Of a stretch of DNA of 64,000 nucleotides, positions 2,214-63,469 are shown piece by piece. The translations under genes were made by a program, and so were the position numbers. Source of the DNA: Gnetum montanum (lineage: Eukaryota > Plantae > Gnetophyta); NCBI GenBank assembly GCA_015680685.1, contig MNCI01001925.1, positions 527,573 to 591,572 of the forward strand. Direction: 5' to 3'. Positions within the stretch are counted from its first letter, which is position 1, and the number at the start of each line of letters is the position of its first letter. The notes under the pieces were generated by a model that saw only the letters and a list, made by a program, of their open reading frames with translations, was not told where the DNA came from and made no database searches.

Positions 2214-5200
2214 GATCACGTGAAGGCCCATCCTAATCGTTTTGGTCATTTTGGGTGTTTTGTGTTATTTAAATGTCCCCATGGCCAATGTTCCTCCTCC
2301 CCATGCTCATGTATGAGGAGAGGCAGTTTGGTTCTACAAGGGCACATGGGAGTTTCTCTAGTTTTTACTACCTAATTTTAGGGTAATTATTTGGTCGCAT
2401 CTGTCGGCTGAAACGATTGTTGCCATTTTGAAAACGTTGTTGGTTGGATCATCGTAGAGTATCTTGACATTCCTGGTGGATGGGTCAGTTGAGTTCGTAG
2501 GTGGGAGGGATCACAAACAAAGCATCAAGGGTTTGAAATCATTATCTTCGATCTGGGAGATGCCTAGGTTTAACTGATATCATGCCTACAACATGCTATT
2601 CATGGCTCATCATCTCACGACCTATTTTTAGAACCCACCTGGCCTTGTGTACTATGCTTGTAGGTAAGTGCTTTCAAGATTTTACGATCTGCTAAATATT
2701 ATCTATTTTTTGTGTTGGGTATAAGAAATTGTCTATATTCTATGGCATAGGTTTTTTAACAATGCAGATGGTCTTCAAGGTGATAGGGACATATTGTCTA
2801 TGGCCAAAATAGCCAGAAAGGAATTCACTTCCATTGGCAATGTGCACACTAGTGTCCTAGGATAACTGGGATTTGAAATCCAACACTATATTATCTGGTA
2901 TGTTAAATTCTTTGGATCATCCTATCACCGTTGATGATGTGCAGGAGATAATTCCACTATTTCCCTTGCCCTCTGGACATGGTAAGTTACGCTACGGTGA
3001 TCAACGATGTGACCCTACAAAATGAGAATAGTGTATAAGATTTTGTTATTTTGTTGTTTTTTCTAACCTATTATTTTATATTTATATTTAAGGAATCACG
3101 GGAGGTCACAGTGGTAGCTTCTAAGTGTGAGGCAGCCAGTATCTTCTTCCGTTATGGTGACATAACAAAAGTGCAATGCTAGCTTTGCCATGGAGCTGCC
3201 CCAGCTACCATAACCAATAACCTCCAAGAAGCTAGAATGATTGAGCTATTTCTTGCTATAACCCTCAATGTCATAGTGGCCGAAATGTTGGCCCTAGTCA
3301 ACTCCTTTAGTGATGAAGCTGAGCATCTTCACATGCACGTGCGTAATTTTTGTGTGAGTTTTGATATTAATGCTCAACTGTTCGTTGACTTTTTTGGTGT
3401 TTCCTCTAATGGTCTTCCAGTGGAAGAAAGATCAAAGAGAGGTTCTAAGCATTAGAAGGACATAGAGGAGTTTCTAGGGGTTAAGAAAGAACCAAAATGC
3501 ATCTTGGCTGATAAAATCAAGATAGAGGTGGCTAACACCATTTATCCCCTCTTTCGAGCTTGCGCTTTCCCCAAAATACTCTCCCAAGGAAGGATCCTTG
3601 GCATAGAGAAGGCTTGGATTATGTGGGAGGTTATGGAGGGGACATGGTATAATTAGGACAAACACCTTGCTAAAGGCCTACAGGCTGAAATGGTTAAGCT
3701 TTGCAAGATGCTTGAGTCTCATTTCAAAATGCATTTTACCTTCTTCTTAGCTTGTTTACAGTATTTTGTCAAATTCTTGGTGGTTTATAGGGATGGATTC
3801 TGGGTGCAGTAAGATCATAACCAGATTTCCAAACCATGGATTTTTTAGGTCTTTTGCATCATCTGATCCCAAGATCCTCCTGAAGGTATTGGGAAGTCAG
3901 TTTCACTAACGACTAAGGATCTGGTGGTGCCTCCTACCTAAGGCCAAGACAGCATGGGTGGGGTACCCCCTTCCTACACTGGCAGTGCGTCAAGGGGAAA
4001 GTGCCTAGAAGTAGAAATAGTAGTTTCATCAGTTTAGTGGAAAAAGTGTCATTTGGCTATGGATTCTCCTAGTCCGACTAGTGAAGAGGGAAGGAAACTA
4101 TAAATTAAGTTTCACAGGAACCATCCCCTGGCTAGTAAGTAGAAAAATGCATGATTAATTTATGTATGTTATGCTACATATAGACATCATTGCGTCACGT
4201 AGTGCTTATGAAAAATAAGTAAGGTTTTTTGTTAACTATGATGTGTTTAATAGGAAAAGGAAAAGATGTAGAGGGATTGACCACTAAAATAGGGGGTCAT
4301 AGTCTTGCAATGTGGGGAAGGGACCCCATTTTTGAAAAAGGAGGCCCTTGTTAACAATGTAGGCAACACACAGGCTCCTATGCCCGAAGAGGAGATGGGC
4401 ATAGAGGACATCGAGGTCCTTTTGGATGAGCCCAGAAAGGAGGAGTGGTTCATCGCTGGTGAGTTTCCTCAAAGGGAAATCCCCCTACTATTACTCCTAA
4501 TGGTTTGTTGAATTAGAGCTTTGTGTTATTGTAATGTCTCAGTTTCTTTTATCTACTGTGATATGTTTAACTCTTTTTGTTTGTGTAGTAGGCACTTCTG
4601 ATAACAGTGGTATACCTTTGTGAGTAGCCTCAACTCAACATTGGGGTGAGGCTCTTGACAAATTTCCCTTTATTAAAGGCATTGTAAACGATATGATTGG
4701 TTGCTTAAAGTGAATTGATCCTAAGATTGGTACATCACCGTTCTTATGCAGGAATCATTGAAATTACAATATTACATTATTCTGTTGTGTCTAACTATTG
4801 ATTTTTCATGTTATAGGATCTGGCCTCAAATGGGATCCAAAAGAGCCCACTGACATAGAAACTACCCCTAAACCCTCATCAGAGGTGACCGAAGTGCCAC
4901 GCAGCCTTTACAATGAGATGTGTAAATGTGCGTTACACTATGCCCATTCTCTATGGGAGTGTTAGAATGTCAATGAAGATCTTTGGAAGAGGTTGCAGAA
5001 AGTAGAAAAAGAGAAAGCTACCCTGACTACTAGGGTTGCGGACCTTGAGTCCTAGAATGAATTTCTACAAGCTCAAGAGGCTAATGATGAGAATTGGTGT
5101 ACAGCTATGATTGACTACGCCCATTATTGGATGGTCGCCAGGAACAATGTCCAAGCCAGTCATGAGCTCATTGAGCAACCGATGCAAATGGATCTCCTAG

Positions 5201-19472: not shown

Positions 19473-22400
19473 ATCCTACTAATACCTGCTCTCATTGTGG
19501 TTGAACTGGTGGGATCCTATGTTGTATGAGTGATCTTGTGACAAATGTTCCCACATCACATGCATGCATAGGATACCAAGTGGTTTGGCTTTCGGAGAAT
19601 GCACAAGAATTCTTAAAATTCCTACTTTGCCACTTCAAGGTGATCATATGGTCATACTTATTAGCTAAAGCAGTAGGTGTCCTAGTTGAGATGTTGTTTC
19701 CTAGGGCAAAACGAGGCATCTTGAAATTCATGTCAGATGAACCTACTAAAGGTGAAGGGATAAGTAGCTAGAGCTAGCACCCAAAAGGCCGTAGGTTGTT
19801 GTCTTGGATTTGGGAGATTCCCAAATTAAAATGCTACCATAAATATAATACTGTATTCCTTTCTTGTCATGTTCACATGACCTTCTAGAACCCACTTGGG
19901 ATGGTTTACTATGTTGGAGGGTGAGCCCTATTGTGATTTCTTATTTTTCTCTTTCTCTTTTTTAACACTATCTATTGTCTCATGACTTAGGATGCTTACT
20001 TCCTTTTTTCCCTATTGCCAAATTTTTTGATGATGAAAATAGCCTCCACAATGGAGAGGGGATATTAGCCCTAGTCTAAATAGCCCTATAAAAGTTCTCA
20101 TCTACTAAGAACATGCATGCTAGATTTATAGGGAAAATTGGGGTAGATAAAATGAATTACCCTAGTAGGTACTCCAAATCCTATGTGAAGTGCTAGGATC
20201 TTGGATGGTTGGATATTGAGTGGGCATTCTAGATTCCAAGTGTAGAAAAGGTTTCAATACCACTACTATTGTTCTACACATCATTTGTGCCATGTAAGTT
20301 GTATCATCCATTTACTTTCATGTAGTTTTAATTTTATATTTTCATCATGTTACTAATTCTAGTTTTGTTTATTGTAGTCGCAACTAAGTCCGAGGACGTC
20401 ATAGTGGTTGTCTTAGGATGCACTGAGGCCAATCTTCTTTTCAAGTATGGTGAGGTTGATGGTTCACAGCTTTGGCTATGACACGAGGCTCTAGCAACAG
20501 TAATCCAAAATCTTCAATGGGTTGGGCTCATGGACCTTTTCTTAGCCATGAACCCAAACATTTTGATAGCAGAGATGATTGCCCTAGTTGACTTTTTCAT
20601 CGAGGGTGTCAAACATTTCTACACACAAATTCACAATGTGTGGGTGGTCTTTGAGATTACGGATGAACTCTTTTAAGATCTCTTTGGCATCCCCTGTAAA
20701 GGTCTACTAGTAGGTGAGAAAAGAAATGAGGAGTTAAACCATAGAGGGGACATTGAAGAGTGGCTGGGCACTGAGAAAGGCCACAAGGGTATACATATGA
20801 AAAAAGTGAAATTGTTGGTGGCCCAACACCTGTATCCCTTCTTTCGGGCGTGTGCATTTCCTAAGCTACTTTCTCAAGGAAAGGTCCTTGGGGTGGAGTA
20901 GGCTTGGGTTATGAGAGATCTGATAAAGGAAGAGACATAGTATAACTAGGCCAAATATCTTGTTGATGGCCTATGAGTTGAAATTATCAAACTATGTAGC
21001 AACCTCAAGGCATGATCTCATGTACATTTTGCATTCTTCATAGAGTGCCTGTGAAGGTTTGTAGAATTCCTAGTGGTTCATGAGGATGGCCAATGAATGA
21101 TGTAAGATCACAACCAAATTTCCAAGCCATGGATCCACCATTTGTTATATACGACATAGTCACAAGACCCGTAGAGGCTATTGGTGAGTCATTTTCAGTG
21201 ACCACCAAGGACCACACAGGGCCATCCTACTATGTGCATGATAGTGCTAGAGAGGCTCCTCCTACAAACACAAGCAATGTAACAAGGGGGGATCAAATCA
21301 TCATTGAAATGGTAAGGTCAAAAATGTAGATCAAGAAGCCTCACCCCATGGAGGAGCTAGTGTGCAAAGTTGAGGAAAGGGGCAAGAAGCTACTCTTTAG
21401 ACTTAACAAAGCATGATTAGAAGTAGCTAGTAAGTATTATTATATATATATTTCTTACTCTCTTTTTCTTATCTAATATTCTAATTTAGATTTGTGTGAC
21501 ATAGGCAAGAAGGTCCCTATAGTAGAAGAGAAGGCCTTAGAGGATGATGTCCCTCAACTCGAGGGACACATGGTAGACAAGGATGCCACTAAATTTTTGA
21601 GGTAGCATGAAGAAGAGGGGTTGCAATTTAAGAATAGTGATTTTGATCATTTTTTTGAAGGCATGTAGATGGGCAATTCCTCCATTCTCACCCCTAATGG
21701 TTTGCTATGTATGAGCTTTTCATTTCCATCTTCATTATGCTTTTCCTCTCCCTCTTTTCCTTTTTTTATTTTATTTTTTGTTTTTATGACCTTGAAATGC
21801 TTTATATTATAGTGGGCAATGCTTTTGTTGAGTGTCCTGAATCTACATCCACTTTCCACTCACAACTGTGGGTAAAAACTCTAAACAAGTTTGCCTTCAT
21901 GCAAGGAATAATGGATGACATGATCAATCTCCTAAATTAGATACATCCTAAGATAGGTGTGTTTTTATATTATTATTATTATTTTGATTTTTTTGCTTTG
22001 TATTATAACTAATGTTTCACCTCTTGGTATAATAGGCTCATGAATTAAATGGGACCCAAGGAAAGTGATCTAGGTTGATATTGTACCTGAGTTCCCTCCT
22101 AAGGTAAAATAGGTGCCTCATTCTATATATGACGAGGTAAGAAAGTGTGCACTACACTCCACACAATGGTTGTGGTAGTGTAGGTGCATGAATGAGAAGC
22201 TCTAGAAATAAGTGCAAGAGCTCTGGGAATAGAAGGAAATCCAAGAAGCCCAACTGGAAGATTTTTAGTCATAGTATGAATTCATGGTGGACTGAAACAA
22301 ATTGGATATCAACTGGTGTATGGTTGTGATTGACTACACTAGATACTAGTTTTCTGTTAGGGGCAAGAACAAGGCTACTTATGAGGTTATTGAGTAGTGC

Positions 22401-23030: not shown

Positions 23031-23209
23031 TTTAAAAATTTGAGATGTAACCCTATTTTTGGAAAATTTTATGTCTTTTGATGTGGATGTAATCCTGGAC
23101 TATGTATTTTATTTATGATTTAATGAAAAGCACGATATTTATTGATCTCTTGTGGTATCATATTAGCTTATAGTTTAGTTGATCTCACTTTGGACTTTTG
23201 TTGATGTAA

Positions 23210-23360: not shown

Positions 23361-23501
23361 CTATTTTTGTTATTTTTTATTAATTTTTTAGTAGCTAAAA
23401 AAATTGTAACTAATGCAAGAAGAAAACATAATGCAAATTGGAACTACATAAACAATGGGACAAGAGATAGGTTGGGTTACTAAATAAAATAGGGACATGC
23501 C

Positions 23502-38347: not shown

Positions 38348-40174
38348 TGAAACATCCTAAAAAAATGCAAGGTCATCCTGACCTCACTAGGCTCTTGTAG
38401 TTCACACAGTACCATGGCAGTTCATCGGGAGAAGAACATTCTAAGTCTAGGATGGCCAGTTTAGCAAATTTTCTACTTTGGGCATGGATAGGCCTTGTAC
38501 TATCCTACCTACCCATTAAAGTAGCCTAAACAGCTGGCAGCCTACTCAGAAATGGTGTGCAGAATCAGCGGCAGTATCCTTGGTGCACAAAAAGTAGTTC
38601 GGCAAGTTTTCTAAGTCACGAAGCCTGCTACACTATGCTATGATATATAGCATAGAAAGCTTTAGAAAACAATGGTAGAACAAAATGCTATGCTATGCTA
38701 TGCAATGTCACACAGCGTTATTTAGCAACAACTTCAGTACCTGCTCTCCTCGCCCAACTTCGAGTGCTGCGGTGATGTCTCTTTTTGCCAAGAAGTGGCA
38801 GACCATGTCTGCTGCTACGCTACACTAAGCTACATGGCACAGAAAGGTGTAGCAATCCTACAGAAGGGACAGAAGGTAGTTTGAAAGGCAAAATCAGCAA
38901 ATTTCGTAAAACTTGCATCGTAGGAAAATGGGTTGCAAATCAGCAAAACTATCGCGATTAAGGCCAGTCACTACACTACGTTATGCTACATAGTGTAGCA
39001 TCACATAGCAAGTATGTGACATATGGTAGGATGAATAGAAATATTCTATGCCATGCCAAGCAAGCCATGTCACAAAGCATAGCATAGCCTGCAAGTGGTT
39101 GTGCAACATCAATGCACTTCATCGAATCGGACCACTGGCACACGTCTCTAGGAGCTAACAGTGTAGTTGCGACATAGTAGGATTGTAGTTATTGCATGGT
39201 AAGCTCACATTGCAACAGTCACAGATGGCTCAAGTAACACTAGTGAGGTAACACAATTCTACAACACATAGCATTCAAACAATCCCTTTTGCTTACCTTC
39301 AGCCCTATAAATATCCCGACAAATAGCACACAAAAGGTCTGAAAAAATTTTCTTGGCTAAGAAAAAGAGAAAGGTACCTGCGATTTGGAAAAAGAAAAGA
39401 AAAATTCAGCAATCTGTAAAGTTAGCAATTTCAAAAGGGGGTTCGCATCCTCCTGGAAGAAAAAGGCTCTTCCCCCTCACCCTCTTTTTTTTGCCAATGT
39501 TGTAACAATCATACCGATCTGTTTAACACTGTAAATAGAGAACCTCTCCGGCTAGCATAAGGTCTCGATCTTCATTCTACCACCTTGGTAGGATCCTATA
39601 TTATTTCTACATGAAGTCTGTGCCCAAGAGCATAGCTCTTTCTGCTTCCTGGCATGCTTTGGTTTTCCTCAAAACTTTTGCACTCTATCACGTTGTGCAG
39701 CCGATTGTATCCACCGTGACAAGATGGATTTGTAGCTCTGAAGCAGTGCAGGTTTCTAACCATATCTTACATTACCTCTCATTTACTATCTAGCTTTCTT
39801 GCATTATTTTTTGTCTTATTTACCTTCAAGCATCATCTCGTATTACTGTCACATTTACATTTCTCATGTTCAGCATCACTTCGTATTACCATCGTATCTC
39901 TACTTTATTCATTATTTCGCATTACTGTTGCATTTTTATCGTTTCTTTCTTTTTCTGCTGTATCTACCTGTAAGCATTATCTTGCAATTTGTACAATTTA
40001 TATTGCAAAAGGCTATATTGATGCAGATGTAAGTCCCTGTCTGATCGACTAGACCATTCAAGGAACCTCGTGTTTGCACACACCCAGCAACACCCTCTCG
40101 TGGCCACGAGATTGGAACTGTTGTGTCTGCCGACCCTGGCATTCTTCCAAGCACCGACGTTTTTAGTCACTACA
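38348..40174 (+). repeat. 5' LTR of element X
   Basis: TGAAACATCC...AGTCACTACA; direct repeat of 55191-56989; CTATAAATA at ~39305. Confidence 0.93.
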
Positions 40175-40180
40175 GTTTTC

Positions 40181-40196
40181 TGGTGCTAGAAGGAGG
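40181..40196 (+). promoter_or_regulatory. Primer binding site (tRNA-Asn type), element X
   Basis: TGGTGCTAGAAGGAGG, 6 nt after the LTR. Confidence 0.82.
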
Positions 40197-40229
40197 ATCT
40201 TTTGGTGCCTTTGCCACATGTCACGGTAG

Positions 40230-40945
40230 TTTTGTGAGCCTTCTGCACCCTGATACACATGAGCATAGATGCAACACCCTCTTGTGGTTGTTTGCACTCT
40301 GTGCAATGCAGATCAGTCGCTCCAATGGTTCCCTAAGAGCCCTATAGAACACAAGGCCTCCAATCGTTGGTTAACTAGCTAATTCTATAGTTGTCTTACA
40401 TGTGTGCTGCACCCCATCTCATGTGGTGTAGACTGGTTGCCTAGACGGCCCCTCCAGGACCCTACGAGACATAAAGTCTACCTAATTGCTAGCTAGCTTT
40501 CCCATCCTACAATTGTCTTGCCTATGTTTTGTACCCCATTCCGTGTGATACAAACTGGTTACCTCGACAGTCCCTCTGGGATCCTGTGAGACATAAAACT
40601 TATCTGGTCTCTAGTTAATTTGCTCATCTTATGGTAGTCTCGTATGCCTTCCACACCCCGACTTGCATTAGCATAGACTCGACATGCTTTGTGGTTGTTT
40701 ATGGTTCATGCGGTGTAGATAGGTTGCCTCGATGGTTCCTCTGGAACCCTATGAGATAATAACCCTTTAGATGGTGATTTACCTTGCCCCTTCTCTTTAC
40801 AGTAGTTTTGCATGCGTCTTTCACCCTATCCAGCACAGGTGAAAATGTGACATTCTTTGAGGTTGTTTGCACCTTGTGTGGTGCAAGTCGGTCGCCTCAA
40901 CGGTCCCTCTAGGATCCTGCAAGACGTAAAGCCACCTTTTATCAT
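40230..40945 (+). repeat. Degenerate ~120-150 bp tandem repeats in the 5' leader of X
   Basis: About five copies of gtg.tg.agac.ggttgcct.gacggt.cctct.gga.cct.tgagacataaag. Confidence 0.75.
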
Positions 40946-41007
40946 TTTTAAATCCTTCTATTCTTCTGCATTTTCTAGCATTTTTTCGCATAATCACATA
41001 CTTGACA

Positions 41008-44000
41008 ATGGCTTCCTCCACCACTGCCATTGGTGCCTCCAACACGGAGGTGCCATTCGCGATCCAAGACACTACTAGTGATGAACAATGACTAAATCCA
41101 ATGCCAGAAGCACGTCGGTCTCTTAGAATCAAAAACTGAGGACCTGAGGGACTAGCCCAACAGCATGATCATTATAGTTTCCTTTGTGTGAAGGTGCAGG
41201 CTAACCTGCCCTTGGATTTACACTAACTCAAAGAAACATGTAGCTTCAAGTTCGCTTACTACAATGGGGAGGAATTTGTTCCTAACCAGGGCATTTCTCT
41301 ACCTTTAACACAAGCGTACCAAAGGCTACTAGATCAACTAATGTAGTTGACAATGCTTAGGGAGTAACAAGACACAGCATCCAACCAGGATGACACCTTT
41401 CAAGATAGCCAGGAGGAACTCGATTCCTAATCTAATGAGGGAGGCCCATCCAAGCTCATTCCTATCCCGCCTACCTAGTCCTTCTGGGCCAACCCACTGC
41501 CTATCATTGTCCCCTTTATCATCACACCTATGCTTCAGCATCCTACAACCAAAATTGCAATGGGTAGCCATACCACATTCATAACACCTCATCACCCCTA
41601 CCTCTCGGTTGCACTCACAGCATCTGTGCCACCGCAAACTATTTACCAGCGAGCTACCACAATATGCAACATGCCTATTACGGCTACCCTACCTCATGTC
41701 CATACTATACCTACTTTGCAACTGCACATAAATCCTATACCAATTTCTACATATGCATCCATTTCACCCACTATGATGGCCCTAGGCCCATCCACATGGT
41801 GGACTCCTCTCGCTTCTTCATCTATTTTGCAATCGTCGTAGATGTCTCACTACATTTTCCCTCAGGTCTACTTGACCCTGTAGATGGTACATCGTAGCAT
41901 GAGGCCATGGGCTGTCCCACCGATGATCCAAGAAGCCTATATGACGACTCAACCCACTATTACCACTCCCATAATACAACCTAGTAGATGGTGGACAATG
42001 CAAATAGCACCTTTAGTAGGGGTGGCCCCAACGACACAGCCAATGGGTCAAATCACCACTGCTACCATGCCACATGTGCGAGTTGTCTCCGTAGTTCCTC
42101 AGCCATCTACAATATCGCTGGGTCTGGACCAACCATTTCAGCTCATTCAGACCCTAATCGAGGAAGTAAAATGCCTCAAAGTTGTTGGGTCTGATATGGT
42201 ACAAGTCATGGGATTTTACCAAGATGACCCCATCAACCCTGCAATCCCTGCTTTGATATTACCACCCGGGATGTTCCTTCTACACTTCATGAAGTACGAT
42301 GGAGAAGGAGATCCCAATACACATCTGGTCACTTTTCGGTTAGAGTCTTTATTACTACAACAATGGCCGCATATGATCATTTGCATCTTCACAATGTCCC
42401 TAGCTAGGAAAGCCCTTGACTAGTATCGCACATTACCATGTTCATCCATTTCGACTTTGGAAGAACTCTTGACCCAGTTCGTGACATGCATCAAATATAA
42501 CTTGAAGACAAAAACCATGCTGGATCAACTGATGAGCATAAAGCAAGACCCACTAGAACTATTCCAAAAATTCATTCAACATTAGAGTGCAACCCTTAAC
42601 AAAATCTGTGAACCTATCGCAAAGGCTCACTTGTTAGCCATCTTTAAGGGTGCAGTGAATGACTTCATCAAATCAAAACTATATTACCTTGCTCCATGCT
42701 CACTTAGCCAAGCTTTTGCTCAGACAATAGGCATACAAGATGCAGCAGAGGCAAGCAAAGACCCAGCTTACATCACTTACAAGGATAGTTTTCCAAAAAA
42801 TAATAAGGGTAAGGCCCTAAAAACCATGGTGGCTACTATGGTTGCTGAGGCTAAGCCCAAACATAGCAATAGTGGAAACAAGAATAACAAGAAACTGTCC
42901 ACACTTGTGGACGACTTAGTGCCTAAACCGGGCCAAGCATCACAACCTGCCACACTTGATACATCTACATATACCAAACCTAACTTTGAATGTAAAGATT
43001 ATTCAAAATACACTCCGCTGCCTCTCAAACCTTCAGAACTCCTGAAGCAAATGTTGGCAGCGAAATACATCCAACACAACCGGATGTCAAAGGAAGAAAA
43101 CATGAGGCATCAACCCTACTACAAGCTCCTTAGAAATCCCTCTTTAGCCCTCCCCAACAAGCCTCCAATTCCTAGGGTTTTTAGGCTAGATAGGTTTTGC
43201 GAATACCATCAATTATGTGGTCACACCACGAATTATTATTTATCATTGCAAGATGACATCCAAAGATTGATTGACCTAGGACAATTGGTGATAGATGAAA
43301 GTAGCCTAGTACATCCTAGAAGCCAATCCATGCATGTCGACACAGATCCACTCAATGCCAATAATTCCAGTTATGTAATCAATGCCATCGGTATTGACAA
43401 TGATCCCATGCCACCCTTCTAGCTGTTTGTGATTCGTGTGCCTCAGCGTAGTGCACCAATGCCACCAATGGTTGGTCCAAGCTCGTAGTCACCCTTCATC
43501 CTGAAAGCCCCACAAGGGGCATCTACCTCTGCACTGCCTATTGATGGGGCCACACAACCCCATCAACTAACACCTATAGCTCCATTCATCATTAGGGGCC
43601 CAACGTCTTCGACAACCCCCATCCCGTGCAACAACATTAAACAACCTCCTCGCCCCACAACACGAGAAATCTACTTGGTAGGCAAGGCATTGAAGGGAAA
43701 TAATATCAAAAGTATCTCCAAAACTATGCCTTAATCCTTTAAATTTACACCTTTGTTACCAAAGACGAAGGTCGACACGATTACACAGCCTACGGCATCT
43801 TGCTGCCAAAAATCTGAACCTAGGTATGGGGCCATCTCCCCTTGGGAGATTCATCTTCTAGGGTGAATCGAGAAGGAGGGTATCAAACAGATGGGTAGCC
43901 AAGACTTCTTGGATGCCCTCATCTAGGTTGGGCAATCCCTAAGGTAGAGAAACACCACATTAAGCCTATTTGGCCTAGTCATGACATCTGCCCCTCACCA

Positions 44001-44820
44001 CGAGGCTCTAGTCCACATGTTAACAGCAATTCTGGTCGATGAAAACATGCTGACAGATGAGAAAGCAATCCACTTGGTCATACTTCCCGCTGTACCTAAA
44101 AATTTCACAATACCTACATTAGCTTTTAGCAGCGACACCATTAAGAAAGATCCCAAAGAGGGTCAAGTGACTACGGCACCTCTCTTCATCACAATTCAGG
44201 TCAGCCAATATTGAATCCAAAGGGTACATGTCGATAATGGGGCAGCCACAAATGTCATCTCCTTTCCTATTAGAGATAAGCTAGGATTGGTCAACCAGAT
44301 CAAACCAACAGTGATGGTGTGTCTGTGGTCCTTCAATGGGGCACGTGTCTTGGTGAAGGGTATAGTTCATGTAAACTTCGTAGTAGGGGATGAGCTCCCA
44401 ATAGATGCAACATTCGTCATGGTCGAAGAAATGCCTCGGTTTAACCTAATCTTAGAAAGATCATAGTTAGCATAACTTAGGCCCATCTCCTCGCCTATAC
44501 ATCAAGAAATCCACTTACCATACGTGGGTAGGGAGGTGATAATCCATGGTGACAGGGTGGTAATGCGAGTAATCAGCAACGTAAACACAGAACAGGGTTC
44601 AGAGGTTACAACCTCTGAAGATGAAGTGCCTGTTCATGCATGCACCAATCATACAATGAAGGGATTGGCCCAACAAGGTGACCATCAAATTGAAAACGTA
44701 TGGGTGGAGTTGCCCTTTCAAGTGAAGGATAGTGACATGAGTGAAGGCCCTGGTGAAATACCTCAACCTTACGTCCCAATCAGCCCACGAAAGGTCAAGA
44801 GGAAGCTATGCATAGCGTAG
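41008..44820 (+). pseudogene. gag: gag-protease of element X
   Basis: KYDGEGDPNTHLVTF, CEYHQLCGHTTNY knuckle, protease VHVDNGAATNVI and FNLILERS; stop at 44818-44820. Confidence 0.92.
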
Positions 44821-45179
44821 CAGCCTTGCGACCTCACACCCAGTTGCCATCCTTGTATATTCGCTTTCTACTTAGCTCATCAGTGTGTCGTCCTTTTGGC
44901 ATGCTATGCTGATGTCCTAAAATGGCCTAAAACTAGCATTATCATCTTTCACTTTACTCAACGGCCCAAAATGCCCTAAAACTAACAAAAGGCCTGAAAT
45001 GACCTAAAACTAGCATACAAGAGTGTGAAAAATTTACATAACATACATGATAATACAAAATTGGTTTCCTTTCTGAAGTCTTGCATTTCATTCAAAATTT
45101 TTCATCTATTAGCAGTGTCTGTAAATTCTTTCAAAAAAGAAAAGAGTGGGAGTCGACCACCATGCTCTAATGAATTATC

Positions 45180-48100
45180 TCCGTTTGCATCGCCAGTTCA
45201 TCCACTTGTGCATCACTTGCTCCTATATTGCCCCTTGTCGACACCTCATTCCTTCCCTCCATGGGCCTCACACCTTTGTTGAGAGACTGTATCCCAAAAG
45301 ATAAAGTAGTTAGTAGGGACAACAAGTGTGATAAATGATAGCTTTAGCAAAGCAATAAAGCAACTAACCTGAGGGGACCCTCCGTTGATCACAAGAGTTA
45401 TTTGGTCTAGACCAAGCCTACGACAATGCTCAATCTCCTCCATCGAAATATCCATCCAATGCCTATCACTAGGTTCAACATTCATAGTGGGAACTTTCTC
45501 CCTTTCCAAAGTTGTCCACTTTAGAGGTTCCTCAGAAAGAGAGGTGGTCGTGGTATCTCCTGTAGGAAGGGTCACCCCCAAGTCTGGAGATTCTGTGACC
45601 TTCACCTACACTTTAAATTTGGCATAGGCCCCAGAAGCACCGATGGCCTTCATGAACATCTCGTATGAGAATGTCTCCATAGCAGCATCCTTAAAAAATC
45701 TTTGATGGGTTTCATTTTCTAGCTTGTATGTATATTTGTGATCCCTCTGGATCTTCCCCCATTTGAAGATCTTGGCACTGAAGTCCTTCATATCCTGGCA
45801 CTTCTGGGCTAGCAAATCCATCTGCATTTGCTGTTCGATTATTTCATGGGTGGATTCTACATTCTGATGGATGATAGTCCAAAACCTAGCATAGTCGTCT
45901 ACAGCCCTTTGTAACTCAACAGGGTTAGGATTATGGTTTATGAGGAAATTGATCCTCGACCTAAGGTTCTTTACCTCAGCAACTAGTTCTGCCTCTCTCT
46001 ACTCGCCCTTGTGGACCCATTTCCATAGGTCCTTGTTAGTACGTCTGGATTCCCATAGAGAGCACGCTGAGTGCAAGATACATTTGTAAGCCTCGTTAAA
46101 TATATGACGAGACACTTTGATCATGTCAGATGAGAGTGTGGGCACTGCGCCAATCTCCATAGGTCAAGTTGGGTCCCACTTGAGTCGAGAGGCTATTCAA
46201 TGTAGAAAGTGTAACAATCATGTTAACGTGACATGAATCAATACATTCAAGAGTTTTAGCGTAGTAGCATGGGGGCTATCAACACTTCTACTTACTCACA
46301 TGAGGATCTTCCTGCTGAAGGTGTTTCATCATGTCATCAGCAAGCCCCTGATCAAATGTAAACTTGTCAGGAACTTCAGCCCATGACTCCGTCCAGGGTG
46401 GAGGAGGTCCTGAGACATCAGTAGTAGCACCTGTTACATAATTAAGCATGTCACCAACAGCTGGAATGGACTATGGTAAGGCACATCCAAAGCCTAAACT
46501 CACCAGCATCTGACTGCTTTCTTGTTTCTTGCCGATGCAATACAATCGTGGTAGGTTCGGTAGAAGGCCCAGCCAAGTCCATAGAAAATCCTACCTCATG
46601 CGTTGGTGCTTTTCCTTTTAGGAGAGGACCATCTTTTTTATTTTGGGAAGACACCTCTTTGTTGTTAGGAAGAGTCTCCCTAATAGCAAGAGTCCTTGTC
46701 CTAAAGACAAGAGCTCCATTATTCCTAGCTAGGGCCCTTTCTTCCAAAGTCGGGGCCCCTGCATCTTTATTTGTCGCCCTTGTTCTGAGGGCTGACACTT
46801 CCTCATTTTCTTCTTCTTCTTCTTCTTCTTCTGTTTCCCACAAAAGGGTATAAACATGACAAATCAAGATAGGTTAACTCAAAAATGATAACATGCTACA
46901 AAGCACTACCTAACTAAGCATAGAATAGCAGGCTCCCTAAACACTCACCAATGGGGTGCTGCATTCACCGCAACTTAAACCGTAGTCTTCATTCCTCTTC
47001 ATGAGGGCTTTCCCTAGCAGGGGAAGGTCTCTTTCTCCATAACTCTGTGAGCACGGTCTCAGCCATGAGATGTTCACCCTATGTCATGTTGCTAAGTATG
47101 GCAGTGGGGGTCTCCCCTACGCTGTCCTGGCCACAAGCACCACAAACCGCTAGACCATTAGTCGTTACGGAAAATGAATCCCTAACCATTTCTAGATGAG
47201 CCTGGGCTTGCATGGTCCGAAAGACTTGTCGAATCCATGGCTTGGGAATCTGGTCCTGATCTAGCTTTGACTAGACTCCATCCTCCTGGACCACCAAGAA
47301 CTCCACAAAGCACTTTAAACAACCTATGTAGAAAGCATAGTGTATGTTAGAGCGGGACTCTGTTTGCTCACGAAGCCCCAAAATCTTGCCCTGCAAACCA
47401 CTACATAGGAACTTAGCCCAGTTATAATAGGCCCTTTCCTCCATGACTTCCAGCATTACCCAAGCCTACTCAAGCCCCAAGACCTTTTCTTGGGTGAGCA
47501 GTTGAGGGAATGCATGGGCACAAAAGACTAGGTATATCCCCATGGTAGGACCGTCCTTAAGTTTGTCTATAGGGAATCCTTTCTACTCCTTGGTGAGCCT
47601 CAGCCACTCCTCGATATGCTGCTTTTGGAGGGTCAACTCCTGCTTACCCTTCGACATCACATCAGGGCCATCAGTGGGAATGCCAAAAAAATATGCAAAT
47701 AGCTGGTCATTGATGTCAATGACCACCCGCACACCCTGCATGTACGTGCAAAAGTGGCTTGCCTACCTAGAAAAGGAATTGATCAAGGAAAGCATTTCGG
47801 TATCAGGGATGCCCAGATACGACACCATAAATAAATCCATAATCCTAGCCATCTGGATTCTTTTGAGCAAAGGGCCCAGAGCCCCTCGTTCTAGTTAGCT
47901 CTAGCTTGCTGATACTTCACCATATTTGAATTAGATGTTTCCCTCTTGCCTTTTGGCAATCACCACTATCACTTCATGAGGCTTCTTTGCTCCTATAGAA
48001 ATGATCACTAAACATGCTTAGCATAAAAGAGAAAAAGCTTGAGCTAGTAGTGCCTGCTTGTTAATCCACCAGGTCTATATGATGAGGAGAATAGTGGGAG

Positions 48101-48883
48101 CTCAGCTGCCAAGACTGGTTCGAGCGTAACTTGTTTAAAAGGTTCTCTTCACTCCTTGTCTAGCCAACCCTTCATCCTGAAATTACCATAGAAAGAGGTG
48201 AGTGTGCCTAGGTAGGAATGATATCCTTCCCTGCAATGAGCAATAATGCCTGCTCACAGGCTCTTGGCAAAGGCAAATTCCTATAGGGCTAGCTGTGCTA
48301 TGGCCAACTCGCTCGGTTGATCATGAATCCCTTCATCATCAAGATAGAACCTAGTGATAAGTGCACACTATTAACACTCAGCCAAGCATGGCCAACGTTG
48401 CACAACCAAGCAAAGTAAAGACATGAAACTCACCCATCAATAGAGTAGATGGTCCCTTGTGGGTTCAAAAAGTACATCGTCACATGGCGTGTGAGGTACA
48501 ATGTGTTGTAAGGATGATAACATTGGTATTCTGGCATATCCTAGATCTAGGCCAAGAGCCTCAACCTTGTGGAGTGTTGGGTAGACCCTCCTCCCGGCCT
48601 GCTTGTGGTTGCATCATCAAAAAGATATCTTAGGATGCCCAGATTTGTCCCTGGCAGCAAAGCCTCTATTATGCCAGATGCCTGTGTCTCATTCGAGGAG
48701 GACCAAACCATGAGACTAAATTGGCTAAGAAGGAATTACAAGAAGTCTCATGCCCTGTCCCTAAACCAAACCACTCGATCTTCCAAACGTATTGAGGGAG
48801 GGGAAACATTGGCCATAGGTTTGCCTACATGACATAAGACTCCTTCAAGATCCAAAATGATCAATCTAGACCTTGGCCCTACC
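45180..48883 (-). pseudogene. Antisense multi-exon accessory gene of element X
   Basis: Exon 48883-48434 reads RLIILDLEGVLCHV...VVWFRDRA*DFL*FLLSQFSLMVWSSS...YHPYNTLYL...LNPQ. Introns include 48433-48351 and 46948-46831. PMD-like exon 47992-46949; coiled-coil exon ~46192-45370. Confidence 0.8.
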
Positions 48884-49714
48884 CTGCACGACGGAAATAG
48901 CAAATATGGACATCAAATATGAACATAATACATATGCAACATAGCAACGCTTAGCCAACCATAAATGTAGCATAACATAATCCTTGTTCATCATAGCATA
49001 GCAAAGATGCAAAAGCCTAGCATAGCAAGAACATGCAAGTAACTTAGCATAATAACAAAATAACTAACAACATGCCCAAACAAAAATATGCACCTACGTC
49101 ATACATAACCAAACCCTCCCAAGGGTTTTATATCATAGCATGCCAAGGTTTAGCAACTTAAAGGACCTTGGTCTCGCACCCGTGGCAACTGCCGCGACAG
49201 TGATGGCCTTGCATGCAACCACAACGAGACCCTTGCACAACAGTGATAACCAAAATAAAGAGAGACTGCGATAGCACAAAAGCCAAAATGACACGGTCAT
49301 AGAAAATACAAGTAGCGAAACAAATGAGATACAAAGCCAGAGTAGAAAATGGCAGAAGGTGTAGGGAGAAAAGAATAGAGAAGACATAAAAAACTCTCTG
49401 AGTCAACAGTATGCCCNGGGAGAAAAGAATAGAGAAGACATAAAAAACTCTCTGAGTCAACAGTATGCCCTCTTTCACTGGAACGCGCATCCACGGCCCA
49501 CGCCTCAGAGTCTTCTTTGCCTCCCTGACCTTCGCAAGCATCAACTAAGTCTTAGGAGCCATAGCCCTGCTTGTAGATTTACAACCTTCATCTTAGAAAT
49601 TTGCCTCTATAATGGATTAACAGAGTGACTCCACACCTCGAGATTGCCGAAGTGCTTCAACAAGGATTATGTGCTTTTAGGGAAAAAATGGTGAAATTAC
49701 TAGGATTCAATCCC

Positions 49715-49722
49715 TATTTATA
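49715..49722 (-). promoter_or_regulatory. Candidate TATA box of the antisense gene (element X)
   Basis: Minus strand CTATAAATAGGG, positionally equivalent to copies A and B. Confidence 0.5.
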
Positions 49723-50448
49723 GCAGTAATAGCAATATGAGGAAACTTCCCTTCTCTCTCCCCAATTAAGTCGGGGCATGGCGTGTGGCGTAGCATGCTT
49801 GCCACGACATCACGACACTATTAGCATTGAAACCTCGACACACTTCAATTCAGTTACTTGCCTTCTTGAAAAAAATAATAATATGATAATATTTGTTTTC
49901 GATTAAAGGTCTGAAAAGACCTTAAACTAACAAACCTGGCATGATTACGCTCCTTAGGATTCAAACACACCAATTTTCACTCATAACGATCTTAGTCCGC
50001 AATGACGTTAAACTAGTTATGCTTCTTACATCAGTAGTCACCTAGTGCATCTCGACATAGGCGGTAGCATATTTCCTAATAGTTTCATGCCTTCATTTCT
50101 GCATTGGCCACCCGATACATCTTGTACTCGCAATTTCATTTCTTTTATCATTATTTAGCACAGCAAGACTTTTCATGTCACAATATGGCAATCCAAAATG
50201 ACAATAAACTAGTAGTTTGACATCCACATACAACTTTGCACATTACATCAACAATGTCTATATCTTCAACAATTCTAGATTCTTGTGCCTGGGCGGTACG
50301 CCATGGCTTTAAACTAGAAAACTCTTAATCTTTACATCACCTTATTTAGCAAGTCACATCTCGGTGTTGCTTTGTAGATTTACATTCCACACAATCACTG
50401 ATGACCCTTACCTAGGCTCTCATCTTATGATGGTAGGTCAAGCAAGAT

Positions 50449-53400
50449 ATGGAAATCGACCATGCCCTGTCCACACCTCTAATATTAATAGGGCCACAAG
50501 GCAAGCTCATAAGATAGTTAAACCCCAATGCAATTAACTAGGGTTCGATTATGATTAATACTACAGTGACCTTAGAAGCACCCCTGGATTGGCCTAGACA
50601 CCTGGTCCATGCCCTAGATTTAGAGGCCGGGGATGTAACCGAGGATCCTCTTGTCGAGATACCTGTAACCATGACAAGAAGAAAGGTAAAGACATTAAGA
50701 CTTAGCTCCCTCCTAGACGCACAAATACATGATGGCATAGTTAAAACCTTGCAAGAACACATTGATGTCTTCACATGATCATACAGAGATATGTCGGGTT
50801 TGGATCCATGGCTGATTCAACATAACATTTTCCTAGACCCCCACGTAAGGTCAGTCAAGCAAAAGGTATGCAAAATTAATCCAGAAATTGCACTAGCCAT
50901 AAAGGATGAAATCACTAAGTTATACCGAGCATGTTTCATCCGAGCAGTTGACTATTCAAAGTGGGTGTCCAACATCATTTTGGTTTCAAATAAAATATGA
51001 GGGATACGAGTATGTATATATTTCTAAGATTTGAATAAGGCAATGATCAAGGACAACTTTCCACTACTGAGCATCAATCATCTCATCGACACCATAGTTG
51101 AACATGCTTTGCTATCCTTCATGGATAGCTTCTTAGGATACAACCAAATTTGCATCAACCTAGAACACTAGTTGTCAACAACCTTCATGACTCCATGGGG
51201 GACCTTATACTATACCATGATGCCCTTCAAGCTCAAGAATGCTAGAGTGACATACCAGCGATCCATGACCTACATATTCAATAACTACATCCTAGAAACA
51301 TTAAACGATTATGTAGATGATATAGCAGTTAACTCCAAAGAGGCAGTCAATCACTCACGTGATCTAGAGTTAGTCCTCAAGTGCTGTCAAAGGCATGATT
51401 TACATCTTAATCCTAAGAAGTGCATCTTTGGAGTAAAGACCAGATGCATGTTAGGGTTTGTAATATCAGAGGCTAGAATATGGGTGGACCCAGACAAAGT
51501 CAAAGCCATTGTCAACCTAGCACCTCCCACAAACCTTAAGGAGTTATGTGTTTTACAAGGAAGAGTGCAATTAATTCGAAGGTTTATAGCAAGATTGACC
51601 AATAAGTTACACCCCATGCAACATCTTCTGAGAAATGGGGTTAACTTCGACTGGACAGCCCAATGTCAACAAGCCTTCGACAACCTAAAGAAAGAGCTCT
51701 TGCACCTCCCAACAGTGTACCTGTCGCAGAGGGACAAGCCATTCCTCATATACCTTTCTACCTCTGATGCATCCATAGTGGCACTGCTATGTCAGAAGAA
51801 GGATGATGGCTCTGAGATACTAGTGTATTACTTGAGCCATGCATTAATATCATACAAGGAAAATTACAATGAGGTGAAGAGGAATTGCCTAGCCTTAGTG
51901 TTTGCACTAAAAAATTGGTGGAACTACCTATTTTGTAGCACAATCAACATCATTTGCAAAATCAATGTACTCTGGGCTATCATTGGCAACCTGTACGAAA
52001 GCAGTAGGATAGCCTGATGGAAGGCCATAACTATAGAATTTGACCTAGGCTATGTAAGCCAATCATTGACAAAGGGCCAAGCCATAGTGACCCAACTTAT
52101 GGCCTCGCCAATCAACAACCAGGAAACCATTGATCTCGAGTTCCTAGATGAATACATTAGCAATGTTGCCATCATCTAGCTACATTTCAAGGCAACCTTA
52201 CACTTCAATGGTGTCTCAACCATGCGAGGAGGTAGTGCCACTACCATAATCACATTCCTCTCTAAGGAAACGTACCCATTGGCTTATTGCTTCCCATTCC
52301 CATGCACCAATAACGTGGCGAAATATGAGGGCCTACTCAGAGGCCTCTTAACTGCCCACGCACTGCATGTACAACACCTGGCGATCCGGGGAGATTTACA
52401 ACTAGTCGTAAATCAAATCACTGAAGTCTATGCCTACAAGGCCGTGCATCTGCAACCCTACTGCTACCTAGAAAAAGTTTTACTAAAACAATTCATGACC
52501 ACTGATGTGCAACACATGCAGTGCAACAAGAACACTATAGCAGACACCTTAGCTACCCTTGTGTTAAACATGCCATCTCATTCCTTGGCAAACCTACCAA
52601 CTGCAATCATAGAATGCGCAGAACCTATCACTCGAGTGGAACACGTGGCATCTATTGATGCTGCAGGAATCCCCAAGTGGTATGATAACATTAAAGCATA
52701 TTTACAACATGGCAAACCCCCAGGTGGATTAACATCGAGTTAGAGAGATCCAATCCGCAAGCGTGCCTGGCAATATATGCTCATGGGAAATGACACCCTG
52801 TGCCGGCAATCCTATGATGGGATATTGTTGGCATGTGTGGGTGGTAAGTAGGCACAAAAGGTAGTTACTAAGGTTCATGAAGGGTTGTGCGGTGGACACA
52901 TAGCACCCAGGGCTATGGCAACAAAAATCAGATGCCTAGTGTATTATTGGCCCTACATGGAGCGCGACTACTTGTCGAAAGTCAAGACATGTGACACATG
53001 CCAGAGATATGAAAATATCATACACATAGCACCTATAGACCTGCACCCAACACAAATTACATGGTCTTTCCAATAATGGGGACTAGACCTCATAAGGCCC
53101 ATCACCGCCACAGAGTATTTTTACTAAGTGGGTGAAAGCTATTCCCCTGAGGGAAACTACATCCTAGCAAATATGCCACTTCATCTTCAATAACATCATG
53201 ACTAAGTTTGGGCTTCTGATGATTATTGTGACTGAAAATGGACCACATTTCAACAGTAAGAAAACCCGGGCCTTCTGTAGCAACCTAGGCATTAAACAAT
53301 TATTTTCTTCCCCTTACTATCCATAGGCAAACGGGTAGGCAGAGGCTACAAATAAGTCCATTATCAACTTCCTGAAGCGGATGCTTAACAACAACAAGAG

Positions 53401-53884
53401 GCGGTGGCACGAGCAAATACTATACGTCCTCTAGGCCTATTGAATGACTTGCAGAACCGCGACAAGTAAGACCCCTAATAGTCTTGTTTATGGATCTAGA
53501 GATGTGTTGCCTCTTGATTTACAAGTATCCTCACTTCAAATGATCCTCTCCAACGTCGTGAGCGAAGCCCAGAACAACGAATCATGAACCATCGACCTCG
53601 ACTCGGTGGAAGAGGAACGCGTGCAGACAATGAGATGTATCGAGCACAAATCAAAATAAACAACAGCAAAAGAACTATGCAGACCCGCATCGATGGCCAG
53701 TGTAGAAGGGAGACCTTGTCCTCAAGGCCATCTGTGAGTACATAAGTAAGTTCTTAGGCAACTGGGAAGTCCTTACGTGGTTGCTAAAGCCTTCGGGAAT
53801 GGAGACTTCAAACTGGTAAACATGGATGGCAACGATTTCACCAACCTGGTGAACCACATCTACCTCAAGCCGTACTACGTCTAA
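50449..53884 (+). pseudogene. pol: pol of element X: RT, RNase H, archaeal-type RNase H, integrase
   Basis: YVDD in RT; TSDAS in RH; aRH with CTNNVAKYEGLLRGL..IRGDLQLVVNQ; integrase VHEGLCGGH..CDTCQR, WGLDL, VTENG and NG*AEATNK; ends YLKPYYV*. No chromodomain. Confidence 0.95.
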
Positions 53885-53899
53885 GGTGCAATGAGAGCA

Positions 53900-54180
53900 C
53901 CAGGCACCATCCACTATGATGATAAACTAGCAGTTGCACCATGTATCATCTGCAATGATGATAAACTAGTAGCACCGAACAGCATCCGCTATGATGATAA
54001 ACTAGCAGCAACCATCTATCACAACGTAAAACTGGCACTGTTAGTCCACTATGACTATACACTAGCATTGCACGTCTGCCATGATGTAAAACTAGTGTGT
54101 ACGGTCTGCTGGGATCTCAAACTAGCATAGTGGTCTACTGGGACCCTAAACTAGCACACGGTCTACTAAGACCTTAAACT
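53900..54180 (+). repeat. Degenerate ~30-40 bp tandem repeats right after the integrase stop
   Basis: Repeated atgatgataaactagca / taaactagca motifs, about 8 times. Confidence 0.75.
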
Positions 54181-55174
54181 GGGTTTGTGTTGCATACTCA
54201 ATATGCACCCCCACCACCAGATACATGTCGAACGAAGAGGCATGATACTGGCGCATGGGCTGAACATTGCTACTCCAGGATGCAGTTCTCGATGTAAGGA
54301 GAACATGGTCTGGGGCATACGTGCTGCCACCTTTGGTGTCATGCTGACCCTTCGAAGACATCGTACGATGTCACACTTTCCCTTCGAACCTACCATTACC
54401 ACGGCCCATCACCGTGATGGTAGTTCCTGGGCTCGTTCCTGCTTCTGAGGTACTGACAATATTGTGGCCTAGCCACAATATTGTTGCGCTTCAGTTCCCC
54501 ATCAAGTTTTTGGCTCGTGCAGTGTTCAACTATGTGGTAGCTGATCTCATAGCTGAACTGAGCATGCATTTCTTTGGTGGGGATTCTAGTGCATCTGCAT
54601 CCCTGGTGCCCTGGGAACCAGCTCCCCCCATGACCAGTGCTGCCAAGACTGTTGTTGGCCTCCTTGCTTTGGGCATCTCACACTAGCAATGATGCCCAAG
54701 TGTAATAACAATGCCAGCAACTTACAAAAAATCATCCCCGTAGATGCATCCCCCTACAGCAGCAAAGGCTACAACGTCCCAAAGTGAGTGCCTTGACTAA
54801 CATGATTGTTTGAGAGTGCAAATTCCAATATGCACGTAACACAACTCGCCATATGGAAGGCTTCAATAGGCAGGTTAGAACATTCCATGGATGTAATACA
54901 GCTTATCCTACGGAGGGGAGACCTACCTACAGGAGGTTGAAGAATAGTGCCAGCCAGAGATGAAAATGCAAATGAGCCCCTCATAGCACTCCAACGAGGA
55001 ACTTAACTAAACATCATCTCTAATCTCTACCTTAACCTCCACAAAACCAATGCAACACCCTCAAGCACGGCCAAGTGACATACCAGTACTGACCAAGAGA
55101 CAACCTCAGCATTTCTCTTACTGCGGTGTTTCGTATTCTTTACCGACATCCATCGAGCTTGTTCTCTAGACATC

Positions 55175-55190
55175 AACAAAGAGGGGCCAA
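55175..55190 (+). promoter_or_regulatory. Polypurine tract of element X
   Basis: AACAAAGAGGGGCCAA immediately before the 3' LTR. Confidence 0.75.
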
Positions 55191-56989
55191 TGAAACATGC
55201 TAACAAAATGCGAGATCATCCTGACCTCACTAGGCTCTTGTAGTCCGCATAGCACCATGATAGTTCATTAGGAGAAGAACGTTCTGAGTCTAGGATAGCC
55301 CGTTTGGCAAATTTTCTACTTTGGGCATGGATAGGCCCTGTAACATCCTAGCCACCCATTAAAGTAGCCTGAACAGTTGGTAACTTGCTCAAAAATGGTA
55401 TGCAAAATTGATAGTAGTATCCTGGGTGCACAAAAATAAGTTCAACAAGTTTTCTAAGTCATGAAGCCTACTATGATATGTAGCGTAGCACGCTTCAAAA
55501 AATAATGGTGGAACGAAATGCTACGCTACGCAATGTCACACAGTGTATCATAGCAACAAATTCACTACCTGCTCTCCTGACCCAAATTTGAGTTCTGCAG
55601 TGATGTCTCTTTTCACTAGGAAGAGGCGGACCATGTCTACTACTACGCTACGTTGAGCTACATGGTGTAGCAAGGCATAGCAATCCTATGAAAGGAATAG
55701 AAGGCAGTTCAAAAGGTGAAATCAACAAAGGTTGCAAATTAGCAAAACTATCGTCATTAAGGCTAGTCGCTATGCTACGTAGCGTAGCATCATGTACCAA
55801 GTACGTGACATATGGCGGGATGCGTAGCAAGATGCTACGCCATGCCAAGCAAGCCATGTCACAAAGCACAGTGCGGAATGCAGGTGGTCATGCAATATCA
55901 ATGCACTCCATCCAATCGTACTGTTGGCACATGTCTCTAGGAGCTGAAGACGTAGTTGTGATATAGTAGGATCATAGTTATTTCATGGTAGGCTTGCATT
56001 GCAACAGTCTTATAAGCCCCCAACAGTCACAGACAGCTTGAGTAACACTAGTGAGGTATCACAAGTCTGTGATGTGTAGCATTCAAACGGTCCCTTTTGT
56101 TTACCTTTAGCCCTATAAATATCTCAGCAAACAGAACACAAAAGGTCTGAAAAAAATTTCTTGGCTAAGAAAAAATGAGAAAGGTACCTATGATTCGGAA
56201 AAAGAAATGAAAAAGCCAGCAATCTGTAAAGTTAGCAATTTCAAAAGGGGGTTCATGTCCTCTTGGAAGCAAAAGGCTTTCCCCCCCCCCCCCCCTTCTT
56301 TTTTTTGCTAGCGTTATAACAATCATACCCATCTGTTTAACACTGTAAACAGAGAACCTCTCCTGGCTGGCGTAAGGTCCCGGTCTTTGTTCTGCCACCT
56401 TGGTAGGATCCCGCATTGTTTGTACATGAATTCCATGCCCAAGAACATAGCTCTTTCTACTTCTTTGCACACTTTGGTTACCATCAAAACTTCTGCACTC
56501 CGTCACGCTATGCAACCGATTGTATCCAACCTGACCGAATAGATTTGTAGCTCTGAAGCGGTGCAGGTTTCTAATCGTATCTTACTTTACCTCTCATTTA
56601 TTGTCTAGATTTCTTGCATTATTTTCTATCTTAGTTACCTTCAAGCATCATCTCATATTACTGCTACATTTACATTTTTCATGTTCAGCATCTCTTCGTA
56701 TTACCATCGTATCTCTACTTTATTTATTATTTTGCATTACTGTTGCATTTTTATAGTTTCTTTCTTTTTCCGCTGTATCTACTCGTAAGCATTATCTTGC
56801 AATTCATACAATTTATATTGCAAAAGATTGTATTGATGCTGAAGTAACTCTCTGTCTGATCGACCAGACCATTCAGGGCACCCCGTGTTCACACACACCC
56901 AGCACCGTCCTCCCGCGGGCATAAGGTTGGAACTATTGCGTCCGCCAACCCCAACGTTCTTCTAGTCACTAATGTTTTCAGTCTCTACA
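55191..56989 (+). repeat. 3' LTR of element X
   Basis: TGAAACATGC...AGTCTCTACA; direct repeat of the 5' LTR with many substitutions and a few indels. Confidence 0.93.
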
Positions 56990-56994
56990 ATAGC

Positions 56995-59299: not shown

Positions 59300-59545
59300 T
59301 TCACATCATGTTATGGCCTGCTACGACCTAAAACTGTCAAAACTCACTGTTCACATTATGTTATGGCCTACTATGGCCTACAACTATAAAAATTTTCCAA
59401 TTACATTATGTTGTGGCCTGCTAAGGCCTAAAACTGATACAATCATCCATTTACATCATGTTATGGCCTAAAATGGCCTAAAACTAGCCACGACCTGAAA
59501 TGGCCTAAAACTAGCAATGGCCTGAAATGGCCTAAAACTAAGGTG
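59300..59545. repeat. GGCC-core tandem repeats after the protease stop (element Y)
   Basis: acat.atgttatggcct...ggcctaaaact units. Confidence 0.75.
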
Positions 59546-63363: not shown

Positions 63364-63469
63364 CAAATAAAAATGTTAGCATGACATGTTGTATCATTCC
63401 ATAGTATTTCTTGTTAGGTAGTTTAAGCTCATTCTTTTTTTTTCCATTGTTGCTATCACCCTTATGACG

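Follow-up and report, generated by a model that had tools for sequence, protein, structure and literature searches.

The window analysed here, a stretch of 64,000 nucleotides from Gnetum montanum (contig MNCI01001925.1), contains a full-length Ty3/gypsy retrotransposon of 18.6 kb on the plus strand (38348..56989), which we refer to as X. The element is bounded by a pair of plus-strand LTRs of about 1.8 kb (38348..40174 at the 5' end and 55191..56989 at the 3' end) that start with TG and end with CA, and is flanked by a 5 bp target duplication with one mismatch (4/5 letters). The two LTRs are 80% identical, with a K2P distance of 0.19, and the element is old. X is nested in the gag gene of a sister element, gag fragments of which are found on either side: the element that received X starts at 37597-38342 and resumes with its gag-protease (gag-PR) region at 56990-59145, which is followed by another gag and no antisense gene. 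A second further gag-PR region of the same family is located at 60467-63330, and a 334-base gap of N at about 36355-36688 looks like an assembly artefact.

Within X the order of genes is gag, protease, a 5.8-kb spacer, reverse transcriptase and RNase H (RT-RH), an additional archaeal-type RNase H (aRH) and integrase. The decayed gag and protease region (41884..44787, plus strand) was mapped by tblastn with the sister copies; a match to Retrotrans_gag was weak (E 0.013) and fell in the sister copy at 60788-61162. The protease of X gave no match to Pfam, and is a putative one by its position and protease-like motifs. RT and RNase H (50661..52014, plus strand) were recognised by Pfam RVT_1, RT_RNaseH and RT_RNaseH_2, the aRH (52180..52740, plus strand) by RVT_3 (E 2.6e-11), and the integrase (52744..53800, plus strand) by Integrase_H2C2 (E 1e-9), with a match to rve below the cut-off (E 1.2e-6). 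Two sister elements on the minus strand, A (gag-PR 10680-6908, RT 761-5) and B (gag-PR 26228-23547, RT 17223-16602), share the layout of X.

The presence of an aRH between RNase H and integrase, with a protease that is tied to gag, is the mark of Ogre/Retand-type Tat elements (PMC6317226, accessible part; PMC4408406). X has the PR-RT-RH-INT order with an aRH, as well as TG..CA LTRs with a 5 bp duplication, and on this domain order and these LTR features it is a Tat/Ogre-like gypsy element. The sequence that follows its 5' LTR (40175-40200) may be a primer-binding site of the tRNA-Asn type. According to the accessible part of PMC6317226, the dominant primer is tRNA-Arg for Ogre and tRNA-Lys or tRNA-Arg for Retand, while tRNA-Asn accounts for 4% in Retand and 15% in TatII. 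Five elements in the window have in common a tandem repeat in the interval that separates the protease from the 3' end of the antisense gene described below (6110-6754, 23232-23368, 44924-45015, 59425-59540 and 63442-63732), the unit of which is about 85 bases in A.

Antisense to the element, in the spacer of X, there is an AG/GT-flanked exon of 450 nt (48434..48883, minus strand) that encodes a NIF/FCP1-type HAD domain. An earlier note on this DNA had placed a transposon-borne, phosphatase-like domain at these positions, and they are the exact limits of a minus-strand exon, with an acceptor reading ..TGCAG/G at 48884/48883, a donor reading GG/GTGAGT at 48434/48433, a reading frame that runs from 48882, and phase 2 at either end. 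Homologous exons are found in A (2214..2663, plus strand) and in B (19473..19920, plus strand). That of A is bordered by an acceptor AAAG/G at 2213/2214 and a donor AG/GTAAGT at 2663/2664, and that of B has a donor at 19920, a decayed acceptor and a frameshift near its 5' end. The exon thus lies inside a full-length LTR retrotransposon, in a layout that two sisters share, and is indeed transposon-borne. All three copies in the window are old and broken, with 4, 6 and 3 stops in X, A and B, respectively (13 in total), and none is intact. When translated with the letter X at stop codons, they are 34-40% identical as proteins, and the motifs that had been quoted for the X exon are present in its translation.

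The NIF exon belongs to a multi-exon gene that runs antisense between gag-PR and RT in 3/3 elements, with both flanks present (slots 44790-50420 in X, 860-6900 in A and 17440-23550 in B). The NIF exon had been thought to begin the protein, which is probably not so, as X and A have upstream of it a probable leader exon of some 40 codons with the start MAPKT. In X this probable exon (49450..49562, minus strand) carries the pattern ATGGCnCCnAAG, which occurs in the window only there and at 1548 in copy A; its donor is decayed and it is presumably spliced. A TATA-box-like site, TATAAATAG, stands at 49714..49722 on the minus strand. Counting both strands, the window holds three occurrences of this sequence (1434+, 18020+ and 49722-), where about 1.5 are expected at random places, and each stands upstream of one accessory gene, in the sense of that gene; the MAPKT start follows after 114 bases in A and 160 bases in X. 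Because of the TATA-like site, the ATG leader and the conserved exon limits, we regard the antisense gene as probably a unit of its own. At 49367-49470 a single N is surrounded by a duplication of 50 bases, which looks like an assembly artefact.

Downstream of the NIF exon, a probable short exon with AG/GT flanks and approximate limits (48070..48350, minus strand) shows weak similarity among X, A and B. It is followed by two exons conserved among the copies, of about 330 and 290 codons. The middle exon (46960..47990, minus strand; about 47010-47987 in X, 3090-4085 in A and 20359-21165 in B) is 40-48% identical among copies, and matched nothing in Pfam, in the PDB or, as a three-copy alignment, in a word-index search of the protein database. 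The late exon (45270..46195, minus strand), 30-42% identical among X, A and B, is charged and helical, coiled-coil-like by eye only, and has no match in Pfam. One stretch of the middle exon resembles what we take to be the motif of the plant mobile domain (PMD), a reading that found no support in Pfam: neither PF10536 nor PF04195 matched any of the three middle exons, where decay may have carried a match below the level of detection. The accessory gene of A ends in a repetitive His/Glu/Asp-rich tail of HEEGP-like units (5720-5930) that is not present in X or B. By eye, a possible splice acceptor stands a short way before the ATG of pol in X, A and B, but no conserved donor that would join gag-PR to pol is visible in the three copies, and an Ogre-type intron is at most a possibility.

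The assignment of the exon to the NIF/FCP1-type HAD domains is secure. The X exon matched Pfam NIF (PF03031) over residues 7-110 at E 4.5e-7, with a score of 30.1 bits where the cut-off is 21.8, as the earlier note had predicted; A and B, searched singly, gave no Pfam match, so that 1/3 copies passes. A profile built from the three copies and searched against 1.84 billion representative proteins found 256 proteins at E<=0.001 (best E 1.5e-12), and 40/40 of those scanned among the 150 relatives listed were NIF proteins. Alignment of the three copies with 35 relatives by hhalign gave 99.6% over 144/149 columns (E 2.2e-24), which bears out the proposal that the order of motifs is that of the FCP1-homology family. 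A profile made from the relatives was also turned back on the window, where in six-frame translation it matched X, A and B at 72, 56 and 48 bits and the next best place at about 1 bit, although it is not independent, since it was built from the matches of these exons. Word-index searches of the protein database, run with the X exon and with an alignment of the three NIF exons, gave no match, and a PDB sequence search with the X exon gave nothing useful.

Structure prediction points to the same family. When only the three copies were used for folding, the model had a mean pLDDT of 55 and was confident in its N-terminal half only; FCP/SCP-family chains nevertheless made up 19/19 of the Foldseek rows listed, to rank 24 (best E 3.4e-3), among them CTDNEP1, SCP1-3, Fcp1 and TIM50, and VIA-align of the model ranked SCP1 first with a modest Z of 6.2. 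Adding 76 relatives raised pLDDT to 87, with a pTM of 0.81, and gave 28 Foldseek matches at E<=0.001, with TM scores of 0.53-0.67 in the FCP/SCP rows, but this second model is not independent because NIF sequences guided the folding. The HAD Rossmannoid fold with the β-hairpin of FCP/SCP proteins is predicted by these models and their matches, and a HAD fold is what had been anticipated.

A link to the RNA polymerase II CTD phosphatases had also been suggested, and it is not supported by the relatives recovered. Among the nearest 150 listed, motif I has Asp in 143/150 and Asn at the position of the second Asp in 141/150, and only 2 of the 150 have DxDx[T/V]. Motif II is S/T in 149 and motif III K in 147, and the two Asp residues of motif IV are kept in 145 and 134, respectively. 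Those that have names are listed either as hypothetical proteins or under the title 'uncharacterized FCP1 homology domain-containing protein C1271.03c-like'; they come from land plants and other eukaryotes, with Sphagnum, Selaginella, Euphorbia and Asteraceae among the sources. Against solved structures, the profile of these D-x-N-G-x-L proteins matched UBLCP1 (E 4.6e-14) more closely than SCP1 (E 7.6e-7). We conclude from these alignments that the nearest relatives of the element domain are the D-x-N-G-x-L ('C1271.03c-like') NIF subfamily and not the CTD phosphatases.

The domain of the elements resembles these proteins in its order of motifs over all 149 residues, in a non-canonical type of motif I, in the WSS of motif II and in the NT..NP region. 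The best identity is only 25-28%, however, and whereas the D-x-N-G-x-L proteins mostly keep the Asp of motif I, the Lys of motif III and the Asp-Asp of motif IV, the element copies have lost the Asp-Asp and, in part, the first Asp. The C-terminal extension of about 60 residues seen in the host D-x-N-G proteins was not detected beside the NIF exon; by eye the host domain had seemed to carry on into the next exon, and a profile search found no sign of it there. In a FastTree phylogeny of 74 rows (the 3 copies and 71 of the 150 listed relatives), X, A and B formed one clade (0.997) on a very long branch. The phylogeny that had been proposed as a check therefore groups the three copies, while supporting no sister lineage among host genes: the neighbours of the clade had values of 0.60-0.77, it was not placed with land-plant genes, and no donor can be named.

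In HAD phosphatases, the first Asp of motif I is the nucleophile and the second the acid-base, and the acids of motif IV hold Mg (PMC8069645, accessible part). The motif I DxDx(T/V) of active enzymes is absent from X, A and B. As had been reported, motif I is DLEGV in X and VILGV in A; the reading ELxG given for B stands for E-L only, the third residue being unreadable at the frameshift. The position of the nucleophile is thus Asp in X, Val in A and Glu in B. The Ser of motif II (Ser61) is kept in 3/3 copies, and the motif III position is Arg, Lys and Arg in X, A and B. The C-terminal DD was rightly noted as missing from all three copies: where the relatives have DD, motif IV reads TR in X, AH in A and SC in B, and 0/6 codons encode Asp.

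It can be seen that the missing DxDxT is mostly inherited, because 141/150 of the listed relatives already do not have the second Asp. Set against these relatives, the loss specific to the elements is that of the Mg-binding Asp-Asp of motif IV and not that of DxDxT. Each of the motif IV codons is at least one transversion away from an Asp codon, and four of the six need two or more changes, whereas decay between the LTRs of X comprises 225 transitions and 62 transversions. A survey of motif IV over a 96-base stretch in three DNA runs, which carry three organism labels, recovered 448, 468 and 481 related contigs, showing that the family is abundant; in another run, X13, 0 reads fell on this stretch, which is uninformative. 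No variant row was seen at the motif IV codons in the three runs, which is weak evidence because all rows listed lie mid-stretch and 83 loose ends are unlisted; 4 of the 18 loose ends listed cover motif IV, and none has an Asp codon. Because transversions are needed where LTR decay consists mostly of transitions, and no Asp codon occurs in the listed cells of the related contigs, the loss of motif IV most likely predates the decay of the X, A and B copies. The earlier description of the domain as catalytically dead can be upheld in so far as the motif IV acids are missing and a pseudo-phosphatase is likely, but not on the grounds of DxDxT, the absence of which comes largely from the D-x-N-G subfamily. 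Without the Asp-Asp of motif IV, the NIF domain of these elements is very probably non-catalytic and likely serves as a binding module.

Divergence at codon positions 1, 2 and 3 of the NIF exon is 0.42-0.47, 0.30-0.38 and 0.55-0.63. The excess of third- over second-position divergence is 0.24-0.30 in the three pairs of exons, a difference reached by 0/200 neutral simulations at equal divergence for each pair. Values of pN/pS are 0.42-0.65 for the NIF exon, 0.42-0.55 for the other accessory exons and 0.25-0.28 for RT, and the frame, length and splice phase of the NIF exon were kept in three lineages in which synonymous sites are near saturation. By this codon-position signature, the NIF domain was kept by purifying selection and was a working part of a protein while the three lineages diverged. 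Four runs contained RNA reads from related copies (177, 93, 40 and 68), nearly all of them less than 95% alike. No splice joint was seen in these reads in 4/4 runs, at thin cover, and some reads extend into the intron; in run X11 the strand bias is the same over the accessory-gene region and pol, so that the RNA cannot be assigned to a strand.

Taken together, we favour as probable a reading in which X, A and B represent a Tat/Ogre-like family with an antisense, multi-exon gene that is led by a likely non-catalytic NIF binding module. The NIF domain would go back to a cellular D-x-N-G gene, from which an ancestral element took it up long ago. The antisense gene would be transcribed from its own internal TATA promoter and then spliced, to give a product with a short basic leader, the NIF domain, a helical domain, an acidic linker and a helical tail. 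With no Mg site, the pocket should be unable to form the phospho-aspartate intermediate or to run the HAD reaction, and the NIF fold may instead dock a host protein or a phosphorylated ligand for the helical domains downstream, so that the product might regulate expression or silencing of the element. A more specific version is possible and is put forward tentatively: the elements may form an undescribed Tat lineage with a separately promoted and spliced antisense gene in the spacer, or intron, that separates gag-PR from pol, whose host-derived pseudo-phosphatase acts as a decoy for a phospho-signalling or silencing complex.

The catalytic residues and the selection data also bear on other explanations. 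The domain might act as a decoy for the Pol II CTD phosphatases, attaching to the phosphorylated CTD and directing how the element is transcribed, spliced or silenced. The phosphate-contacting Ser of motif II and a basic residue at motif III are kept in 3/3 copies, and SCP1-3, CTDNEP1 and Fcp1 are the top structural matches of the predicted models; however, these are just the family members with solved structures, the full-length structural alignment gives only 13-19% identity to SCP/Fcp1 chains, and by sequence the relatives are the uncharacterised D-x-N-G subfamily. We therefore consider a CTD decoy improbable, and its binding partner is more plausibly one shared with the host D-x-N-G proteins than the Pol II CTD. 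It is also unlikely that the domain still works as an enzyme, or binds metal, through a reconstructed site formed by Cys17 after motif I, by His123, and by His133 directly after motif IV. X does keep the motif I Asp, and C17, H123 and H133, as well as Y122 and Y125, are invariant in 3/3 copies that are 34-40% identical, where the relatives mostly have Ser at 133 and Asn, Ser or Asp at 123. Yet three sequences give many invariant columns by descent (32/149), and the motif I position (Asp, Val or Glu) and the motif IV positions differ among the copies.

The exon could, finally, be a passenger, either a fragment of a captured host gene or of a nested element, which ceased to function early on and persisted only as a stable spacer, or a region in which the antisense RNA is what matters. 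No intact copy, spliced read or protein-database record was found, and antisense RNA itself has been proposed as a regulator (PMC7264820). A passenger would not be expected to show a codon-position pattern beyond 200/200 neutral simulations per pair, nor to keep frame, length and splice phase across three lineages near synonymous saturation, and we hold this explanation to be quite doubtful. For the binding-module reading there is precedent in TIM50, in which a NIF-type fold is used as a binding module. The element domain has its fold and Pfam PF03031 in common with TIM50 and with the FCP1, SCP, CTDNEP1 and UBLCP1 phosphatases, and differs from these phosphatases in having neither DxDx(T/V) nor the motif IV acids.

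Among known elements, Ogre and Retand share with X the aRH between RNase H and integrase and a protease that is with gag, apart from RT; they also share with this family the 5 bp duplication, long LTRs, tandem repeats and an antisense extra gene (PMC6317226, accessible part; PMC4408406). The accessible part of PMC6317226 places the extra ORFs of Tat elements 5' of gag or 3' of pol, with PMD, Transposase_28, SMC-like and DUF domains, and NIF is absent from the CDD list of extra-ORF domains in that part. The gene of X, A and B is unlike these ORFs in its position between gag-PR and RT, its several exons and its NIF domain. A putative intron between gag and pol has been described for Ogre (PMC9289625, accessible part), and no report of a gene within the Ogre gag-pol intron was found in the literature searched, as far as it was accessible. 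The earlier note knew of no NIF domain in LTR retrotransposons, and none was found in the open literature searched, with subscription papers and large supplements outside the search. As far as this literature goes, the new features are the NIF domain and the slot between gag-PR and RT; antisense accessory genes of Tat elements are of a known kind.

A parallel to a captured host domain is an ORF of orchid Ogre-related elements that encodes an AlkB m6A demethylase, a host enzyme domain likewise fixed in an extra ORF of the Tat clade (PMC9289625, accessible part). The orchid domain is an active one with close similarity to host genes, whereas the NIF domain described here is highly diverged and has lost catalytic residues. 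The antisense extra genes of plant LTR retrotransposons are of unknown origin and function, with no clear similarity to cellular proteins, and their products have been proposed as regulators (PMC7264820). For the antisense gene of X, A and B a cellular relative is clear, the fold is defined and the loss of catalysis can be tested, which offers a handle both on the origin and function of such genes and on an uncharacterised NIF subfamily of eukaryotes. PMD proteins reportedly act in silencing with the phosphatase-family protein PP7L, which is itself inactive; this is a lead only, no PMD having been detected in the middle exon with Pfam. Among the D-x-N-G relatives, four short ones (P0021, P0024, P0044 and P0110) have eroded motifs I or IV, and the subfamily may contain further members that are degenerate or mobile.
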